A stretch of 29,598 nucleotides of DNA, from positions 1 to 29,598 of IMG/VR virus record IMGVR_UViG_3300020045_005943; one strand, given 5' to 3'. Positions within the stretch are counted from its first letter, which is position 1. Every line of letters starts with the position of its first letter. The stretch comes from a virus. Lineage: Duplodnaviria; Caudoviricetes. A program made the position numbers and the translations under genes. Below are positions 7,709 to 16,160 of the stretch, in pieces. The notes below the pieces were generated by a model. The model saw only the letters and a program-made list of their open reading frames with translations. It was not told where the DNA came from and did not search any database.

Positions 7709-8095
7709 ATGACAATCGAAGACTTAGTAAAAGAACAAATTGAACAACTTGACATAAGAGAGTTAGTTCAAGGTGAAATCAGGAAACTAATTTCTGATGA
7801 GGTGCAACGCGAAATCGTTAAAACCACAAAAGAGGAAATTCAACGAGTGATTAAAAATGAAGTTGAAATTGCTCTATCAAAAGGCGTTAACACCGATGAC
7901 GGATGGGGGAAACGGGAAAGTTATACTTCATTTGAAGAGATGTTCAAAAAGTTTTTCAAGGAGGCTCTTAACAACCAATACGAGGTTAAGAAGACTATTG
8001 AAAACCACGTTAAGGACACAACGAAAAAACTTGTTGACGAAAAAACAAAAGACATCGTTGAAGCCCTCAAAAAATCTCTTGGCGCGGGTGGCTGA
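7709..8095 (+). CDS. Hypothetical helical protein (array remnant)
   Basis: ATG at 7709. The gene ends in GCGCGGGTGGCTGA followed by an orphan AT-rich right arm. Confidence 0.7.
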   Translation: MTIEDLVKEQIEQLDIRELVQGEIRKLISDEVQREIVKTTKEEIQRVIKNEVEIALSKGVNTDDGWGKRESYTSFEEMFKKFFKEALNNQYEVKKTIENHVKDTTKKLVDEKTKDIVEALKKSLGAGG

Positions 8096-8163
8096 TTTTA
8101 AATTAAAAATTTGCACGGTGAACAGTTGAAGCAGCTACTCAAAACCTCACTACGAAGCACTAA

Positions 8164-8690: not shown

Positions 8691-8694
8691 TATG

Positions 8695-9069
8695 AAATTT
8701 TAAAACAAAAAATAGCGATGGCACATGGAATGAAAATTAAGGATGATGAAAAAGCGGCTTTTATAAAAATGAATGGTGGAATATTATGGTTCATTGAAAA
8801 TAAAAGCACCGGACTTTGGTGGCATCACACCCTTGACTTAAAGGACAATCTCCCTTGCACCTGTAGAAAATGTTACCCAACCGGCTATCCATTTAAAAAA
8901 TACAAAGACGGATGGACAAATGATGTTCAAAAAGCTGATGCCTATCTTACAAAGGAACAGGCAGAACATGGAATATTCTTTTACTATACCAATGAACCAG
9001 AAACAAATTTAATAGCCACCGAACATGAATTTATACCAAGCGCGTAGGGGATTTTTTGTTTTAAAATTT
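8695..9069. repeat. Inner inverted repeat pair 2 (19 bp, perfect)
   Basis: AAATTTTAAAACAAAAAAT 8695-8713 / ATTTTTTGTTTTAAAATTT 9051-9069. Confidence 0.9.
8718..9047 (+). CDS. Hypothetical protein
   Basis: 109 aa, exactly filling inverted repeat pair 2. Confidence 0.75.
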   Translation: MAHGMKIKDDEKAAFIKMNGGILWFIENKSTGLWWHHTLDLKDNLPCTCRKCYPTGYPFKKYKDGWTNDVQKADAYLTKEQAEHGIFFYYTNEPETNLIATEHEFIPSA

Positions 9070-9088
9070 TATGCGCACGAACTACGCT

Positions 9089-9274
9089 AACGGGAGGTGC
9101 TTATGCAGTGCGATTAATTAAACTAAAAATTAAAATATGAAACACAAATTCACACTAACGCAAACAATTGAGTTGATAAGGATGAACGCTCATAGCGGCA
9201 CAAAAGAAAATTTAGAAGCGATTATCGACCTGACATACGAAGCAGAAAAATTAGCATTACATAAGCACAATGTT
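9089..9274 (+). repeat. attC-like hairpin A1, with a start codon in its loop
   Basis: TAAC-G...GTGCTTATGCAGTGC 9097-9111 / GCATTACATAAGCAC 9254-9268...T-GTTA. Confidence 0.75.
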
Positions 9275-9358
9275 ATGCCATCGTTGCCCGAATTAGACGC
9301 AGACTCTAACTGTGACCACAAAATTTTATATGAAAGACTTATTGAAAAAAGCGTTTGA
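9137..9358 (+). CDS. Hypothetical protein reading through the GTT core
   Basis: ...LALHKHNV|MPSLP...; GTT at 9272 is the Val codon. Confidence 0.55.
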   Translation: MKHKFTLTQTIELIRMNAHSGTKENLEAIIDLTYEAEKLALHKHNVMPSLPELDADSNCDHKILYERLIEKSV

Positions 9359-9557
9359 GGCTGGCGAAAGAAAGGCACACGCTCAAGATAGCACTGAGGG
9401 AATTTTAGGATTCGATACCGAACCTGATTTTGAAACATGGTACGAGCAATCGCAACAACCTATTGTTAGCGGCAGTGGCGACTTAATCCAATTCGCTATG
9501 TATTTAACGGGGCATGATGAAGACACCATTAAACAGATGTACCGTGATTGGCACTGA
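9330..9557 (+). CDS. Hypothetical protein reading through the GTT core
   Basis: MKDLLKKAFEAG...QQPIV|SGSGDL...; GTT at 9465 is the Val codon. Confidence 0.65.
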   Translation: MKDLLKKAFEAGERKAHAQDSTEGILGFDTEPDFETWYEQSQQPIVSGSGDLIQFAMYLTGHDEDTIKQMYRDWH

Positions 9558-9625
9558 GCCATCGCAGGAATGTTGCAAAGAATATATGGACAAACACAAA
9601 AAACTATCCAGCGGCAATGCGCCAT

Positions 9626-9695
9626 AACGTGCAAGTGCTTGTGTCCGGTTTGCTCCAGACACAAGACAAAGGCAAACTGGCACAAGCACGGTGTT
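9626..9695 (+). repeat. attC-like hairpin A2 (short, empty)
   Basis: AAC-gtgcaa-GTGCTTGTG(T)CCGGTTTGC-loop-GCAAACTGGCACAAGCAC-ggt-GTT, with one extrahelical T. Confidence 0.85.
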
Positions 9696-10212
9696 ATAAG
9701 CTGGCCGGGATGAACCGATGAACGAACTTAAAATAGATGAACTGAATTTTTAAACTTAACCAAGAAGCGCGGGCTTTTGAAACACCGAACGACATGAACG
9801 AAGAAGAAATTAAAAACGCTGTGATTGAATCAGTAACCATTGATATGGGTGACCGTGGATTGCTAACCGCTTGGCTACATTTGAACTATGGCGGAAGCGG
9901 CCAGGGCTTTGGCGGATTCTCACTTTACCTACCAAAATCATATACTCATTTTACAGAGAAGGGAGATTTTGCCGGACACTTTATTTTCAGATGCATGGAG
10001 ATTGCGGGCGTTGAGAAATGGGAACAGATGAAAGGCAAAACCATAAGGGTAAAATCAAGCCATAGTAAAGTGGAAGCCATCGGGCATATTGTGAAAGACG
10101 ACTGGTTCAATCCTTCACAGGACTTCACCCGTATGAGTGCGGTGGGTGGTTAAGTTTAAAAATTCTCCGCAGACACTGACCTATGAAACACGTCCCCCGG
10201 CTTGCTTATAAC
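9693..10212. repeat. GTT...AAC module with nested inner repeat pair 3
   Basis: GTTATAAGCTGGCCGGG 9693-9709 / CCCGGCTTGCTTATAAC 10196-10212; inner perfect 19 bp pair at 9744-9762 / 10147-10165. Confidence 0.9.
9794..10153 (+). CDS. Hypothetical protein
   Basis: 119 aa (KNAVIESV...GQGFGG...IGHIVKDDWFNP), filling inner pair 3. Confidence 0.8.
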   Translation: MNEEEIKNAVIESVTIDMGDRGLLTAWLHLNYGGSGQGFGGFSLYLPKSYTHFTEKGDFAGHFIFRCMEIAGVEKWEQMKGKTIRVKSSHSKVEAIGHIVKDDWFNPSQDFTRMSAVGG

Positions 10213-10333
10213 GAATCGGTGCTTGTTTAGTGCCGTGATTAACAGATTGAACTAACTTAAAAACACAAATATGACAACAACTAAAAAACCATCCACGAAG
10301 CGCAAAGCTAAGGCATTGAACAAGCACAATGTT
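10210..10333 (+). repeat. attC-like hairpin A3, with a start codon in its loop
   Basis: GTGCTTGTTTAGTGCC 10219-10234 / GGCATTGAACAAGCAC 10312-10327, between AAC and GTT. Confidence 0.85.
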
Positions 10334-10516
10334 AGCCACAGTGCCGACACACCGAAAGTATATATAGGGGGTGAAGAAGTTACCGACAAAGACACAAAAG
10401 CAATACTTCTGATACATTATGCAATGACCATATCAACACCCCGCATGAGAAAGGCAAACTTGGAATTTGTGTTGAGCCGTCCAAAGTACAAGTTGAAAGT
10501 CACAGAATCTTATTAG
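10271..10516 (+). CDS. Hypothetical protein spanning hairpin A3 and the next module
   Basis: MTTTKK...LNKHNV|SHSA.... The stop falls just before the right arm. Module arms: GTTAGCCACAGTGCC 10331-10345 / GGCATTGTGGCTAAC 10518-10532. Confidence 0.7.
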   Translation: MTTTKKPSTKRKAKALNKHNVSHSADTPKVYIGGEEVTDKDTKAILLIHYAMTISTPRMRKANLEFVLSRPKYKLKVTESY

Positions 10517-10587
10517 AGGCATTGTGGCTAACGCATTGTGGGTTTGGTGATGTGAATAATGACTATGCCGGGAAAAGTTCTGAGGAG

Positions 10588-10719
10588 ATGAAGGAAGATA
10601 TAAAGGTTCTGCTATCCTTCACAAAACCAGAATCAATTACTGCCATGATTCACTCACTCATTGAATTGCAAAAAGCTGTGTTCGATGGTCACTTAGAAGT
10701 TCCCGAGCGGGTCGGCTGA
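10588..10719 (+). CDS. Probable 3' gene fragment or short hypothetical protein
   Basis: Frame is open from 10522; ends in GAGCGGGTCGGCTGA plus an orphan right arm. Confidence 0.4.
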   Translation: MKEDIKVLLSFTKPESITAMIHSLIELQKAVFDGHLEVPERVG

Positions 10720-10872
10720 TTTAGTTTAAAAATTGTTTCGCACGAACTGAACTACGAAGAGAATGACAGAGGCTGAATTTATCCAATTTGCCGAAAACAG
10801 AATATCAGGTAAAGAGTGGCATAACACTATTGATTCAGGCTATTCTCTGTTTAAGTCAAAAAAAGAAAAACT

Positions 10873-11091
10873 ATGACACAACAATATATAACCCATCTTA
10901 ACGAATGCATTAAGGCAAATAAAGCGCATTCTATTGACCCATTTGAAGTATTCGAAAGAATGAAAAAATCAGCAATCGAAGCATATATTAAAACACGTAA
11001 TGAAGAAAATGAAGAAGGGAACATGGGGAGGCAAGCGAATAAGCACGAAGCCAAAGAAAGAACCAACCAAAGTTATCCGCGTACCCATTAG
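10873..11091 (+). CDS. Hypothetical protein
   Basis: 72-aa ORF whose 3' half overlaps the 11000-11131 gene. Confidence 0.45.
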   Translation: MTQQYITHLNECIKANKAHSIDPFEVFERMKKSAIEAYIKTRNEENEEGNMGRQANKHEAKERTNQSYPRTH

Positions 11092-11131
11092 CAAGTTACC
11101 GGCTGTACTCAAGGCTCTTGGTAAAGTTTAG
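11000..11131 (+). CDS. Small basic putative DNA-binding protein, copy 1 (43 aa)
   Basis: MKKMKKGTWGGKRISTKPKKEPTKVIRVPISKLPAVLKALGKV; paralog at 15259 differs largely by synonymous or conservative changes. Confidence 0.7.
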   Translation: MKKMKKGTWGGKRISTKPKKEPTKVIRVPISKLPAVLKALGKV

Positions 11132-11159
11132 GATGTGTCCAACTTAATAAAATAACAAC

Positions 11160-11297
11160 ATGAAAAAGAAACTTTCAAAAACCACAAAATCAAGGCCATT
11201 AACTAAACACAATGTTAGCGGTATACCAAATATGTATCCCACAGAAGCCCGCTTTGACAAAAGAAAGAATAGCGTTCAAGTTATCACTAAACGGTAA
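11160..11297 (+). CDS. 45-aa peptide reading through the GTT core
   Basis: MKKELSKTTKSRPLTKHNV|SGIPN...; the stop lies within the right arm GGTAATTGCCGCTAAC. Confidence 0.5.
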   Translation: MKKKLSKTTKSRPLTKHNVSGIPNMYPTEARFDKRKNSVQVITKR

Positions 11298-11415
11298 TTG
11301 CCGCTAACGTTTGCCGCTTTATGCAGTGCCTACACGAACTTAACTATGAAATGCGAACCTTTTTTTGAATTAAATTTTTTAAGCGTGGATTTTTGAATTT
11401 AAAACTTTAACAACT

Positions 11416-12381
11416 ATGAAAAAGTATCCGAGTATAGAACAATTTAGAAATGTGATTAGAAGCGTAAAAGCTATTCACGACTATCAAGGCAAGGACGAGG
11501 AAGGTAAAGCCATTTACCAACACAAGGATAATTACCCAACCCTGACCTTTAGAGGCACAGTAAAACTTCATGGGACGAATGCCAGTGCAGTAAAATACTC
11601 AGATGGCAGAATTGAGTTCCAATCAAGGGAAAGAGTTTTATCATTGGAAGATGATAACGCTGGATTCATGGCTGCAATGGTTGGTAAAGACTTGAACATC
11701 TTGTTTAACCAGTTTTCACCAAAAAACTATGTTGCTATTTATGGCGAATGGTGTGGTGGAAATATTCAAAAAGGAATTGCCATAAACGGACTTGGTAAAA
11801 TGTTCGTAATTTTTGGAGTGATGGTTGATGATGTTTGGGTTGACTTACCGAGTGACCTACACTCAAATGAAAATAGCATCTACAATATTTTACAGTTCCC
11901 AACTTATGAAGTTGAAATAGACTTCAATCACCCTGAGTTAGTGCAGAATAAAATAATTGAAATGACTATTTCCGTTGAGGAGTGCTGCCCGGTTGGGAAA
12001 TTCTTTAATAAGGAAGGCGTGGGTGAGGGTATAGTTTTTACTTGCCTGAAAAATCAAGAACTGAAATTTAAATCTAAGGGTGAGAAACATTCCGCATCGA
12101 AGGTAAAAACACTTAATCCGGTTGATGTTGAGGCTATAGCAAGTATCAACGAATTTGTTGAATTAGCGGTTACTGAAAATAGATTGGAACAAGGAATTTC
12201 CTTTTTCAGGGAAAACAATATTGAGGTGGAAGCTAAAAATACTGGGCAGTTTTTAGGCTGGGTTGTAAAAGATGTCTTGAAAGAAGAGAAAGACACCTTA
12301 GAAGCAAGTGGATTGGATGAGAAAAAAGTGAAAAACGCAATAGTAACAAAAGCTCGAATCTGGTTTCTGAATTGCATTTAA
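11416..12381 (+). CDS. RNA ligase, Rnl2-like nucleotidyltransferase
   Basis: Motif I KLHGTN, QSR, III YGEWCG, IIIa FVIF, IV EGIV, V KFKSK, and a C-terminal VTENRLEQ...DVLKEE domain. Confidence 0.85.
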   Translation: MKKYPSIEQFRNVIRSVKAIHDYQGKDEEGKAIYQHKDNYPTLTFRGTVKLHGTNASAVKYSDGRIEFQSRERVLSLEDDNAGFMAAMVGKDLNILFNQFSPKNYVAIYGEWCGGNIQKGIAINGLGKMFVIFGVMVDDVWVDLPSDLHSNENSIYNILQFPTYEVEIDFNHPELVQNKIIEMTISVEECCPVGKFFNKEGVGEGIVFTCLKNQELKFKSKGEKHSASKVKTLNPVDVEAIASINEFVELAVTENRLEQGISFFRENNIEVEAKNTGQFLGWVVKDVLKEEKDTLEASGLDEKKVKNAIVTKARIWFLNCI

Positions 12382-12420
12382 TGTGCTGCGGAATAACAGA
12401 TAAACTTTGATTGAAACACA

Positions 12421-12841
12421 AAAAATAAATTTAAACTTTTTAGAGCGATGGCAATTAACGTAAATGAATTTAGAAAAGGTAACTATGCAAACTACTCCTA
12501 TCAAGGAACGGATGTGATTTTTTACGGTTACAACTATTCCGATGGATGCTTTACCGACTTTTCATCAATACCAATTGAGCCGGAAGAACTTGACCCAATA
12601 CCATTAACTGAAAAATTGTTAATACAATTGGGATTTATTAAAAAGTGGGATGATTATAAAGGTGAGGTTGAACAATTTGAGAAGGGTTTGATTACTTGGT
12701 CAAATGGCCAGTTTAGGATTGGAACTTATTGGGTATTTGATTTTGAAATACATCACCTTCACCAATTACAAAATCTTTACTTCTCAATTACAGGAACCGA
12801 ACTTGTATTGAGCGGGGAGGAAAAAGTTTAAATTTATTTTT
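12421..12841. repeat. Inner inverted repeat pair 4 (21 bp, perfect)
   Basis: AAAAATAAATTTAAACTTTTT 12421-12441 / AAAAAGTTTAAATTTATTTTT 12821-12841. Confidence 0.9.
12448..12831 (+). CDS. Hypothetical phage protein
   Basis: 127 aa (PIPLTEKLLIQLGF...HLHQLQNLYFSITGTEL), filling pair 4. Confidence 0.8.
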   Translation: MAINVNEFRKGNYANYSYQGTDVIFYGYNYSDGCFTDFSSIPIEPEELDPIPLTEKLLIQLGFIKKWDDYKGEVEQFEKGLITWSNGQFRIGTYWVFDFEIHHLHQLQNLYFSITGTELVLSGEEKV

Positions 12842-12895
12842 CCTTCAATGACCTGCGCCCTGTCCGATGGAATACGAACTAAGCAGCTTGCATAC

Positions 12896-12969
12896 AACGC
12901 TCTCTGTGTTTGTGAGCGGTTTTGCTCCACACGAAAGACTACGGCAAAACTGGCACAAACACAGTTGTT
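12896..12969 (+). repeat. attC-like hairpin A6 (short, empty)
   Basis: AAC-gctct-CTGTGTTTGTG(A)GCGGTTTTGC / GCAAAACTGGCACAAACACAG-tt-GTT. Confidence 0.85.
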
Positions 12970-13059
12970 AGCAGCAGTAGCTTCCACTGAACTTAATTAA
13001 ATGCACAAGAAAAAAGAAAAAATTTTAGCAGGGATTTTGAAACACTAAACTATAAAATT

Positions 13060-13401
13060 ATGGATGGAAACTTAGCAATGGCAAACTCAATTGTAAATCA
13101 AACTGAGGAACAAGCCAACACACCGAACTACCCAAAAGGAACGACCAAGGAACAATGGGACAGATACGCGATTGACCTGAAAGCCCATGAGGAACGAGTG
13201 GCACGAGAGAAACCAATTGAGCCAGACCATCTTAAATACAAAGAACAAAAATATAAAGGTGAATGGACTTTTATACCGGGGTATTTAGAGCGGTATTCAA
13301 ATGATTGGGACGCTTACCAAAAGAAACTATCTGAATGGGAAATGATGTGTTCGTGTGATGCCCCCAACAAGCCCGGTTACTACAGAGCAAACAACGATTG
13401 A
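13060..13401 (+). CDS. Hypothetical protein
   Basis: 113 aa, inside pair 5. Confidence 0.75.
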   Translation: MDGNLAMANSIVNQTEEQANTPNYPKGTTKEQWDRYAIDLKAHEERVAREKPIEPDHLKYKEQKYKGEWTFIPGYLERYSNDWDAYQKKLSEWEMMCSCDAPNKPGYYRANND

Positions 13402-13402
13402 T

Positions 13403-13612
13403 ATGCCAAGAGTAGAATTATCTGAAGCCGATTTAGAATGGGTAACCGAAGCCATTGGTGAGGGCTATACCAAGAAACAATTAGCGAAACAATATGGTGT
13501 ATCGGTGCCGACTCTTAATAGATTACTAAAGGGCGAATCTATCATTTGCGGTAAATGCAAGATGCTTGGGCCGTTAGCTCCGTGTGATGAATGTGGGTTA
13601 AAACTAATTTGA
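13403..13612 (+). CDS. HTH protein with a C-terminal CxxC/CxxC motif
   Basis: YTKKQLAKQYGVSVPTLNRLL HTH; CGKC...CDEC. Confidence 0.7.
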   Translation: MPRVELSEADLEWVTEAIGEGYTKKQLAKQYGVSVPTLNRLLKGESIICGKCKMLGPLAPCDECGLKLI

Positions 13613-13695
13613 ACTCAATGCGCGGTGGCAAAATTTTTTCTTTTTTCTCGTTCAAGTTTGCACGAACTCAGCTACGAAGAAAGGCTATTGCTGCT

Positions 13696-13764
13696 AACGG
13701 GCGAATGTTTATGACGGTTTGCTCCACACGGAAGACAAAGGCAAACTGGCATAAACATGGTGTT
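13696..13764 (+). repeat. attC-like hairpin A7 (short, empty)
   Basis: AAC-gggcga-ATGTTTATGACGGTTTGC / GCAAACTGGCATAAACAT-ggt-GTT; a relative of A2 and A6 with compensatory changes. Confidence 0.85.
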
Positions 13765-13847
13765 ATCTGCTGGCCGGTTACACTGATAAACTTAACTATG
13801 AAACACACAAAAATTTTGAATTAAAATGCCGAAGGGCGGATGTATTT

Positions 13848-14054
13848 ATGACACTAATAGAAGCATGGTATCGAAGACATTTTTGTGAGACTACCAGTTG
13901 GTATGCAGGTAATCCAGCACTTGGAACTGAGTTGATGGACATACCTTCACAGAACATGAAGTACATCTACGTTGGAAAAGGAAAGATTTGGATTAAAAAG
14001 GACGTAAGTAAACTCATGCGCAAATTGAGAGAATCAAAAAGACCAATATTCTGA
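13848..14054 (+). CDS. Hypothetical protein
   Basis: 68 aa, coupled (TGATG) to the next gene. Confidence 0.65.
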   Translation: MTLIEAWYRRHFCETTSWYAGNPALGTELMDIPSQNMKYIYVGKGKIWIKKDVSKLMRKLRESKRPIF

Positions 14055-14410
14055 TGACTACAGGTTATGAATTATTAGCCGAACAACTACACGGTAGAAT
14101 TAGGGCGGCAAAAAAGGAATACGTTATATGTGCAGCTAATTGGTATAAAGTGCCGACTTCAAAAAGCGAACACCTACCACAAAATATTGGCTACGGTATT
14201 GTTGTTTGCGGCAGGAGGCACCACAATATTTTTGCCACGGTAGCTAAAATAAGTGAGGACTTTATGCATGATACTAAATCAATGTGTGAGCAAGGGTTTA
14301 TGACTTCAAAAGATAGATGGGTTGACAGAAAAGAAGCTGGGCAAATAGCCTTTGAAGCTGGGCAAACGACTGAATTAAAAACATGTCTTTTTTCGGAAGA
14401 TTTATACTAA
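14054..14410 (+). CDS. Hypothetical phage protein
   Basis: 118 aa (VCGRRH...QGFMTSKDRWVDRKEA...LFSEDLY). Confidence 0.8.
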   Translation: MTTGYELLAEQLHGRIRAAKKEYVICAANWYKVPTSKSEHLPQNIGYGIVVCGRRHHNIFATVAKISEDFMHDTKSMCEQGFMTSKDRWVDRKEAGQIAFEAGQTTELKTCLFSEDLY

Positions 14411-14503
14411 CCCGCATTGCGAATGGGGCTGGGGCATTTTAATTCAAAATTTTTGCTCACTGAATGAACCTATGAAATGCGCTCTGTCCACCGGCTTGCA
14501 GAT

Positions 14504-14592
14504 AACGACCAAGTGTTTAAAGCGTTTGGCGCTTCAAAGCTACGCCCCGTCCACGGAGGGCAAAACCGCCAAATGATTTTAAACACGGTGTT
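14504..14592 (+). repeat. attC-like hairpin A8 (short, empty)
   Basis: AAC-gaccaa-GTGTTTAAAGCGTTTGGCG / CGCCAAATGATTTTAAACAC-ggt-GTT. Confidence 0.8.
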
Positions 14593-14780
14593 ATGCACAG
14601 TGGCAACGTGGGAACTTTTTATGAGCAATAGGGGCTTGCGCAGCTTGCCTCTATTGCGGTGAAACCCGCTTTTTACGCTGATTTGAGGGGTCTAAAAAAT
14701 AATTCAAATATTTATCTTGAAAGTGTAACAAGTTCAAGTTATTAGCGTATATTTACATAACAATTAAAACAAACAACGCC

Positions 14781-14912
14781 ATGACAACCTCAAAAAAATC
14801 AACCAAAAAAGAGACAGTAAAAATCTTCGGACAGACTGTAACCGTAGGAACTAAGGAACATGCCCGGTTAGTTTATCAACAAAAACTGTTTGCTCAAAAT
14901 GGTGACTACTAA
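14781..14912 (+). CDS. Small hypothetical protein (43 aa)
   Basis: MTTSKKSTKKETVKIFGQ..., after an A-rich leader and a promoter-like TATATTTA (14748-14755). Confidence 0.55.
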   Translation: MTTSKKSTKKETVKIFGQTVTVGTKEHARLVYQQKLFAQNGDY

Positions 14913-15045
14913 GCTAACGATAAAAGAAATAGGAAGGCTTTCAAAACGGAGGCTTTCCAAATACATTGAGGATATTACACAAACTCCAATTTGTGCTGAT
15001 GTTAATTACTGCAAAGCCCTGATTGAATTATGGATGCAGAAGTAA
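14899..15045 (+). CDS. Small hypothetical protein (48 aa)
   Basis: MVTTKLTIKEIGRLSKRRL...; overlaps the upstream stop region. Confidence 0.45.
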   Translation: MVTTKLTIKEIGRLSKRRLSKYIEDITQTPICADVNYCKALIELWMQK

Positions 15046-15055
15046 TCCATTTAAG

Positions 15056-15304
15056 ATGAAAATCCAACACGCTAGGAGACGTCCACAGGTGCTAGGGTGG
15101 TGCCGCTCGTTAGTGCGGCACCTTTTTTCAAAAATCATTGCAGTCAGATGGTGGAATAATCTTCCAAGACTAACCCAAATTTCATATAATTATAATGTGT
15201 TTGGAGCGCCCGATTTAGGCGAAACCGATGAACTAAGCAAAAAAGATATTATAAAAATATGGGAACTAAAAAGAAAAAAGGAACATGGGGAGGAAAGCGA
15301 GTAA
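15056..15304 (+). CDS. Hypothetical protein
   Basis: ATG at 15056 in the frame of track ORF 15023-15304; contains a terminator-like hairpin. Confidence 0.45.
   Translation: MKIQHARRRPQVLGWCRSLVRHLFSKIIAVRWWNNLPRLTQISYNYNVFGAPDLGETDELSKKDIIKIWELKRKKEHGEESE
15099..15128 (+). terminator. Intrinsic terminator-like hairpin
   Basis: GGTGCCGC-tcgttagt-GCGGCACC followed by T6. Confidence 0.55.
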
Positions 15305-15393
15305 GCACGAAACCAAAGAAGGAGCCGACTAAAGTCATGCGGATACCGATTAGCAAGATTGGGGTTATACTCAAGGCTCTTGGAAAGGCTTAG
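15259..15393 (+). CDS. Small basic putative DNA-binding protein, copy 2 (44 aa)
   Basis: MGTKKKKGTWGGKRVSTKPKKEPTKVMRIPISKIGVILKALGKA. Confidence 0.7.
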   Translation: MGTKKKKGTWGGKRVSTKPKKEPTKVMRIPISKIGVILKALGKA

Positions 15394-15457
15394 GAATTGA
15401 GCGCGGCACGTGTGGCCTTTGCAAGTGCCTTGCTACGCTCTGTCCGCCATTGTGCAT

Positions 15458-16047
15458 AACGCTTGGTGTGTTTATACAGTGCGATTATTAACAGATGAAC
15501 TTTCAACGAAGTAGTAACAAATTTTAATTTAAAAAGCAGGGAGGGGCTTACCCAACATTTAAAGTTATGAAACAATCCAACTACACATTTGCGGAAGGAT
15601 TCTATGGAACTCCGGCAATTGCAGCCAAAGCAAGAGGCGCTAAAATGAAAGCCTTTGATTGGGATAAGGCAGCCCAAATAATAAAAGAAAGGTTTGCCCA
15701 ACATCCCGATTTAAGTGCAGAGGCAGGACTTCAAGGAGACTGGAATTATACAGGTGGGGTAATCTTTGAAAACGGCAAACCGACCAAAGAAAACTATACA
15801 TACCTATCATCAAATTGGGCTGCACCAACTTTGATTTTGAGCTGGGATGGTAATGAACAAGAGGAGCTTGAATGTTCAACTGAGGCCAATGAGAGATTTG
15901 ACTCAGATAGCAAATGGGATGAAACCTCTTTGGGTATTCTTGGGATAACTCTGTAATTCATCGTGCGGCTGGTGATTTTTAAATTAAAATTTGCACGGTG
16001 AACTATCCACAACGCACTGAACTAAGCATTGTATAAACACACTTGTT
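15458..16047 (+). repeat. attC-like hairpin A9 with a whole gene in its loop (inner pair 7)
   Basis: GTGTGTTTATACAGTGC 15466-15482 / GCATTGTATAAACACAC 16026-16042; inner perfect 18 bp pair at 15518-15535 / 15976-15993. Confidence 0.85.
15567..15956 (+). CDS. Hypothetical protein
   Basis: 129 aa (FDWDKAAQIIKE...AGLQGDWNYTGG...SSNWAAP). Confidence 0.8.
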   Translation: MKQSNYTFAEGFYGTPAIAAKARGAKMKAFDWDKAAQIIKERFAQHPDLSAEAGLQGDWNYTGGVIFENGKPTKENYTYLSSNWAAPTLILSWDGNEQEELECSTEANERFDSDSKWDETSLGILGITL

Positions 16048-16108
16048 GTATGCTGGCCGCCACCGCTTTTAAAAGGATTAGAGAGACTTCGGGCGGCTTG
16101 CATACAAC
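16045..16108. repeat. Empty GTT...AAC module next to the putative attI-like site
   Basis: GTTGTATGCTGGCCGCC 16045-16061 / GGCGGCTTGCATACAAC 16092-16108. Confidence 0.85.
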
Positions 16109-16148
16109 TATACCATTGAGAAATATTTCGTAAATCAAATTTAATCCG

Positions 16149-16156
16149 TATCTTTG
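16149..16156 (+). promoter_or_regulatory. Bacteroidota -7 promoter element for the recombinase
   Basis: TATCTTTG matches TAnnTTTG and lies 4 nt before the ATG. Confidence 0.6.
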
Positions 16157-16160
16157 AATC

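Follow-up and report, generated by a model that had tools for sequence, protein, structure and literature searches.

The 29.6-kb window analysed here, which is the whole of the virus-like contig IMGVR_UViG_3300020045_005943, carries a row of small units that ends beside a tyrosine recombinase gene. Each unit runs from one AAC core to the next and consists of an AAC...GTT hairpin followed by a GTT...AAC module. In the unit nearest the recombinase, at 15458–16108, a gene for a 129-aa protein lies inside the hairpin loop and the module is empty. We consider it likely, with a probability of roughly 0.65, that this unit of a phage array beside a non-IntI recombinase is a mobile cassette, whose predicted free form is a single-stranded dumbbell able to hold cargo in either loop. 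The loop-loaded feature itself is real and recurrent, and it is probably functional. The geometry, the AAC-to-AAC extent of the unit, the fixed terminal AAC, the occurrence of cargo on either side and the coding-strand G.T bias are seen directly, and from these we infer cutting and insertion.

Geometry and folding of the unit

A preliminary description of this region had placed the 129-aa gene and an inner repeat pair inside a 590-bp AAC...GTT hairpin, and both its coordinates and its stems are confirmed. The cores lie at 15458–15460 (AAC), 16045–16047 (GTT) and 16106–16108 (AAC). The outer arms pair over 17 bp with one G.T pair and no extrahelical base, and the open reading frame (ORF) of the gene lies inside both the outer and the inner stem. 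As had been expected, DNA folding of 15440–16120 pairs the arms that start at 15466 and 16026 on both strands, with pair probabilities of 0.87 on the top and 0.77 on the bottom strand (z −6.2 and −3.9 against 20 shuffles). Their score of 15.7 is the highest in the window, compared with 8.9 for the next partner of AAC15458 and a maximum of 10.6 over 200 shuffles. The 64-bp module had been called non-coding. It contains no ATG, but two frames per strand are free of stops over 20–21 codons, so that the term holds in the sense that the module has no gene of its own.

Two observations make 15458–16108 one whole unit. In a related locus, L081, a 391-bp AAC-to-AAC stretch occurs at two places in identical copies with different flanks, the second copy being terminal. 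Contigs of relatives in X1, the one DNA run listed, part from the window directly after AAC15460 and AAC16108; no RNA run was listed. This run, which does not cover the 129-aa gene itself, also holds a copy of the 64-bp module with five differences, and the letters that follow it resemble another hairpin start. Exact DNA pattern searches with the arm of the unit gave two chance matches without a surrounding unit, and another pattern gave none.

Cargo on either side of the stem

We ran a parser for AAC-hairpin-GTT-module-AAC triples on 145 fetched loci and obtained 327 unit calls, compared with 5 in shuffles. Upstream sequence of 1 kb or longer was available for 63 recombinase loci, and units were present in it in 59. 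By position relative to the recombinase, 273 calls are upstream and on its strand, 10 are downstream, and 26 are on the opposite strand. Dropped before counting were a single weak call common to L009, L010 and L037, minus-strand calls, hairpins longer than 1500 bp, duplicates (312 to 293) and one merged unit (L112:6941; 293 to 292).

Among the resulting 292 units in 63 loci, ORFs of at least 50 aa are found in the module only in 149, straddling only in 105, in the loop only in 14 and in mixed positions in 5, with none in 19. The count of loop- versus module-loaded units in related arrays, which the preliminary description had proposed, is thus 14 to 149. ORFs run across the GTT core in 109 of the 292 units and across the 3' AAC in 23. 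By length of hairpin and module, 27 units are long/short, 6 long/long, 10 short/short and 249 short/long, a one-sidedness with a Fisher p of 3e-24, in which related units are not independent. The loop-loaded layout, which varies an integron-like design, recurs in related arrays and is not confined to this genome, long-hairpin/short-module units being found in 18 of the 63 loci. Long-loop units are not enriched at the terminal position (6/43 versus 21/249, p 0.26), and 8 of 15 loop-gene units directly precede another unit. Hairpins of 101–135 bp make up 131 of 293.

The same cap, TCGTTTTAATG (11 nt, one mismatch allowed), closes 30 empty hairpins of 45–47 bp and 8 empty modules of 29–38 bp, and each stem so capped has its own sequence and is still complementary. 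This sharing of a cap by both stem ends is the strongest sign of symmetry. The family of the 129-aa gene is found on both sides. It is loop-loaded in L015 (546/83 bp for hairpin and module), in L034 (548/542) and in L016 (560; module read by eye), and module-loaded in L021 and L022, which are near-identical copies. The earlier proposal, that a symmetric structure can be loaded at either end, is thus well supported by the shared cap, by the split into loop, module and straddling genes and by a gene family present on both sides. L034 is loaded at both ends. A 67-bp unit at 9310–9379 of L145 (45/28) has cargo at neither end, and each of its loops carries a variant of the shared cap.

The folded strand and the circular form

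G.T pairs favour the coding (top) strand, with ratios of 247:1 for the arms of modules and 135:21 for those of hairpins, and the coding strand would therefore be the folded one. The start of a module matches the 3' end of its own unit at 5.8 of 6 bases and the end of the upstream neighbour at 2.7, as expected of a circular form. When joined as a circle, the junction of the 15458–16108 unit folds to a single uninterrupted stem, which the short module closes, with −35.1 kcal/mol on the top strand.

The wobble bias might also arise if the stems were RNA structures that bracket the gene, as leader and terminator or as stability elements, and if units moved by homologous recombination between conserved flanks. 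The bias is towards the mRNA-sense strand, and the genes run operon-like toward the recombinase. We nevertheless think this very improbable. Stem sequence varies freely, while the AAC and GTT triplets and a 2–4-nt asymmetry of the spacers are kept (284 of 285 scored). Nor would RNA brackets explain why arrays end at a fixed AAC beside the recombinase, why L081 holds an exact AAC-to-AAC duplicate, or why stems lie inside ORFs in 109 units. No Rfam family was matched, the one match being below threshold.

Recombinase and putative docking site

The recombinase matches PF00589 with 136.6 bits, and R130, K155, H219, R222, H245 and Y254 are invariant in 39 relatives. An insertion specific to IntI in the catalytic domain is a criterion for integron integrases (PMC8138268). 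Against VchIntIA (2a3v), the match splits into two stretches, separated by 22 residues in the query and by 65 in IntI, and the score against TIGR02249 is 150 bits at a cutoff of 265. The enzyme is not an IntI. A search of viral contigs with the single recombinase sequence gave no matches; an alignment-based search did find relatives.

Among the 32 arrays listed, 25 end at an AAC 39–60 bp before the recombinase start, and 14 of these at exactly 55 bp, as in the window. This fixed position and the terminal copy of the L081 duplicate would fit an attI-like docking site. The 64-bp module was considered as a fixed part of this platform and rejected, as terminal modules range from 29 to 1301 bp and a copy of the module precedes non-terminal-looking sequence.

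A model for gain and loss of the unit

According to our model, the recombinase would cut at AAC on the folded coding strand and circles would be inserted at the terminal AAC, so that the 15458–16108 unit would have arrived last. The circle would have a compact stem of ~100 nt, made up of the right outer arm, GTT, the 64-bp module, AAC and the left outer arm. As this site would be closed via the 64-bp module, insertion could proceed without closing the long loop. After insertion, the site would have to close over 590 nt, and excision of the unit and of its upstream neighbour may be slowed, by analogy with attC sites that have a long variable terminal structure. Such attC sites lose up to 4 logs of activity under replicative conditions and none after single-strand delivery (PMC8946536). 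The unit would thus be easy to gain and slow to lose. This reading predicts a class of cassettes that insert easily and excise slowly, a property that would set the residence time of a gene in a phage array. The attC sites known so far are short, non-coding hairpins, and detection tools are built on that assumption. The recurrence of sites of 400–970 bp that hold a gene in the loop, together with a cap common to both stem ends, points to a two-loop circle as the design unit of this system.

Several observations weigh against this model. Among the 40 loci with close homologues of the 129-aa gene, which formed the gene-side comparison, 35 show no site, some of them being without flanking DNA. 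L021, L022 and L016 score below the threshold of 19.5, L021 and L022 just under it. The G.T bias fits RNA equally well and is partly one conserved wobble counted many times. Shuffling one inner arm in six trials did not lower pairing of the outer stem at equilibrium (0.87 to 0.93 on the top strand, 0.77 to 0.83 on the bottom). When the array state is folded, the AAC15458:GTT16045 core is unpaired (P 0.0) because the GTT pairs with the AAC of the module. The core is also unpaired in three of four short-hairpin controls, the fourth having been folded without its module end, and the model therefore needs protein-assisted folding. We saw neither an excised circle nor an empty site nor a rearranged form of the exact unit, run X1 having only pieces from relatives. 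Finally, L021 714–1218 and L022 725–1231 match at 98% in the module and at 71% in the hairpin, with different neighbours. This pattern is not explained by a single AAC crossover and hence possibly reflects an exchange of halves at the GTT side.

If hairpin and module halves were exchanged separately, by crossover at both cores or by a second strand exchange between folded sites, the inside-out unit would combine a hairpin half that carries cargo with a module half that has none. Besides L021 and L022, with the same module and different hairpins, a 121-bp hairpin is 100% identical in L094 and L123, which differ in their modules. The doubly empty unit of L145 and the doubly loaded one of L034 would also follow, and the enzyme lacks the IntI insertion. 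The chance of this explanation is slim, as cargo is strongly one-sided (27/6/10/249), unlike free assortment, and ORFs read through GTT in 109 units. A module is shared by only two pairs among 294 units, and in one of these the hairpin went along (0.92/0.81). Shared hairpins would be expected from a reused scaffold as well, as in Vibrio repeats. A broader form of the idea is rather unlikely. Cassettes could be symmetric single-stranded dumbbells with a shared cap and a copied stem, whose halves a non-IntI recombinase swaps, such that loop-loaded, module-loaded, doubly loaded and doubly empty units and GTT-crossing ORF fusions would all be products of one reaction. If true, half exchange would be a visible route to new gene cassettes and new fusion genes.

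The inner repeat and the gene scaffold

The inner repeat pairs perfectly over 18 bp, and similar repeats are part of long-cargo units in general. Their AT-rich arm lies 42–53 nt inside the core in most modules and 51–59 nt inside it in the two best loops. As a rule, a G-rich motif follows on the coding strand just inside each inner arm. These motifs, for example GTGCGGTGGG, stand in direct orientation at both inner arms. Under a fixed criterion, loops of at least 450 nt have the repeat in 5 of 7 cases and modules of that length in 29 of 57, compared with 2 of 16 shorter loops and 22 of 144 shorter modules (shuffles at most 1.4%). The inner repeat tracks cargo length, not the side of the stem.

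The repeat had been suggested to help close the long loop. Its enrichment around long cargo agrees with this suggestion, but it occurs on both sides of the stem, brings no gain in closure at equilibrium, and is absent from the loop-loaded relative in L015. Closure of the inner repeat would cut the open loop to about 114 bp, and the repeat could possibly aid kinetically by this shortening. In the mobile-cassette model, it would be a scaffold for long stand-alone genes on either side of the stem, and any benefit would be kinetic.

Contigs of relatives retain the scaffold with a different gene. For this unit, the change comes at the ATG in two cases, and for other genes of the window it comes between the inner arms; all come from one run at 80–85% likeness and are hints only. 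The origin of cassettes is a long-open question for integrons, and a shared scaffold with the gene swapped at the ATG is a handle on how cassettes are built.

The same contigs could indicate that a gene unit bounded by the inner repeat entered the loop of an ordinary 111–125-bp site. The cassette, empty until then, would have become stuck or dead. Removal of the piece bounded by the inner repeat leaves 114 bp, a common hairpin size. Relatives keep the scaffold up to the ATG and then carry another gene, and at other genes of the window they have the same flanks with different letters in between. This history seems improbable to us. Three other arrays, with different arms, also have a member of the gene family in a loop, the two stems of the unit have few or no mismatches, and the unit lies at the putative docking site. 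Moreover, profiles of the 113- and 124-bp classes gave no match to the window unit or its flanks at 8 bits. Such an insertion route may create loop-loaded units without inactivating them.

Comparison with known systems

The array resembles integron cassettes in several respects. A tyrosine recombinase adjoins a putative docking site, units bounded by AAC and GTT form an array, the site is set by fold and not by sequence, unit ends are complementary as in a circular form, and site families are reused at set lengths, here 46, about 78, 86 and 124 bp. In the 15458–16108 unit, conserved AAC and GTT triplets close an imperfect hairpin, as is required of attC. Also typical of attC sites are an unpaired central spacer and an L stem with two or three extrahelical bases (PMC2727003). 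The unit has spacers of 5 and 2 nt beside the core and no extrahelical base in its 17-bp stem.

There are also differences. attC sites measure 57–141 bp (PMC5371416), whereas the site here is 590 bp, four times that range, with a whole 129-aa ORF in its loop. End complementarity covers 8–16 bp, and ORFs often cross the GTT core. While attC recombines as the bottom strand, the G.T bias here appears to point to the top strand as the one that folds, and while integron genes read away from attI, from a Pc promoter, the array genes point to the terminal site and the recombinase. The recombinase has no IntI insertion, and the array is carried by phages. The array would thus work like integron cassettes yet does not belong among them, because of the missing IntI insertion, the over-long site and, in comparison with attC (PMC2727003), the reversed strand and gene orientation.

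Among recombinases, the best family score is 183 bits with NF040815 ('site-specific tyrosine recombinase/integron integrase'), and the best matches in the Protein Data Bank (PDB) are 4a8e and 5hxy, a likeness to archaeal XerA. The score is under the 220-bit cutoff of NF040815, and the enzyme, unlike that group, sits at the end of a cassette array. A closer parallel is Polaribacter phage Leef_1 (MT732473), whose recombinase is 35% identical. Three units lie upstream of it (L150 6829–8925; 128/489, 122/246 and 177/175), and its terminal AAC is 57 bp before the start of the 'integrase'. Unlike the window, Leef_1 has no loop-only unit that we detected. In the main text of the Leef_1 paper, the integrase is a sign of lysogeny, and the words 'cassette' and 'integron' are absent (PMC8776804). 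In Flavobacteria, 'XerD' genes lie beside resistance genes, with no cassettes described in the available text (PMC11194056, PMC7473080). The available part of one review (PMC8618304) has nothing on such an array type, and the literature searched, without supplements and most subscription journals, gave no description of the array type or of a gene inside a site loop. Leef_1 and its cultured host are a pair that carries the array and could serve as a test system.

The 129-aa gene

Of 317 candidates, 310 are homologues of the 129-aa protein. It has no family match in Pfam, NCBIfam or PHROG. Its structure model has a mean predicted local distance difference test (pLDDT) score of 84. Compared with the PDB, the model gave no match at Z of at least 5 (best Z 3.9); matches in the Atlas reach at most 0.84, and other fold matches are only to uncharacterised viral folds. 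The genome collection searched holds no close relative of the gene, and among annotated phages only Stenotrophomonas phages have relatives of the protein, at 46–53%.

Table 1. Features of the loop-loaded unit and of the array around it, in window coordinates; paired lengths are hairpin/module in bp
Feature	Position	Strand	Remarks
Recombinase-proximal unit	15458–16108	+	AAC to AAC, 648 bp between cores; 590-bp hairpin and 64-bp module
5' core AAC, candidate crossover	15458–15460	+	doubles as 3' end of preceding module 14590–15460
Outer stem, 5' arm	15466–15482	+	5-nt spacer after AAC
Inner AT-rich inverted repeat, 5' arm	15518–15535	+	57 nt inside core
G-rich motif inside 5' inner arm	15536–15546	+	stereotyped in long-cargo units
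129-aa gene	15567–15956	+	widespread in phage-like contigs
G-rich motif inside 3' inner arm	15963–15974	+	
Inner inverted repeat, 3' arm	15976–15993	+	51 nt inside GTT core
Outer stem, 3' arm	16026–16042	+	2-nt spacer before GTT
Empty GTT...AAC module	16045–16108	+	self-contained hairpin, pair probability 0.99
Terminal AAC and spacer, putative attI-like docking site	16106–16160	+	55 bp before recombinase start
Tyrosine recombinase, 275 aa	16161–16988	+	R130-K155-H219-R222-H245-Y254 intact; no IntI-specific insertion
Rest of array	9089–15460	+	186/357, 70/520, 124/202, 687/95 (weak), 1590-bp stretch, 74/732, 69/745, 89/871

The contig and the rest of the array

The contig encodes tape-measure, endolysin and YqaJ genes. 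From ~9090 to 16108, small plus-strand genes stand in a row, followed by the recombinase. Its host is presumably a member of the Bacteroidota, because the nearest annotated phage recombinase is that of Leef_1.

The other intact units had been described as arranged the other way round. This is true of the four at 9626, 12896, 13696 and 14504, with hairpins of 69–89 bp and modules of 520–871 bp, but three units had been overlooked. Two of these, at 9089 (186/357) and 10210 (124/202), are well paired and straddled by an ORF that begins in the loop and runs across GTT. The two ORFs, 9137–9358 and 10271–10516, read via the 3' arm and GTT into the module. In such units, 105 of the 292, the ORF begins within a hairpin of about 124 bp or longer, so that the site itself encodes part of the protein, with HKHNV-like ends. 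The third, at 10530–11308, is a second unit with a long loop and a short module (687/95). Its arms score only 7.5/6.5, inside the shuffle range, and it may be a decayed composite.

A pair of paralogous ORFs of 44–46 aa lies at 11000–11131, in the 687-bp loop, and at 15259–15393, in a module. Their DNA is 81% identical, they share WGGKR...EPTKV.R.P, and they fall below the 70-aa limit of the program-made ORF list. The stretch 11306–12898 has an AAC core at either end but no GTT core that we could recognise. It contains two genes, one of them RNA-ligase-like (PF09414), and is probably a decayed or merged unit. Inner-repeat scaffolds also occur upstream of the first full unit, at 8093–8123 and 8692–9072, one of them nearly identical to the 15976–15993 arm, which suggests that the array's far end contains decayed cassettes of greater age.
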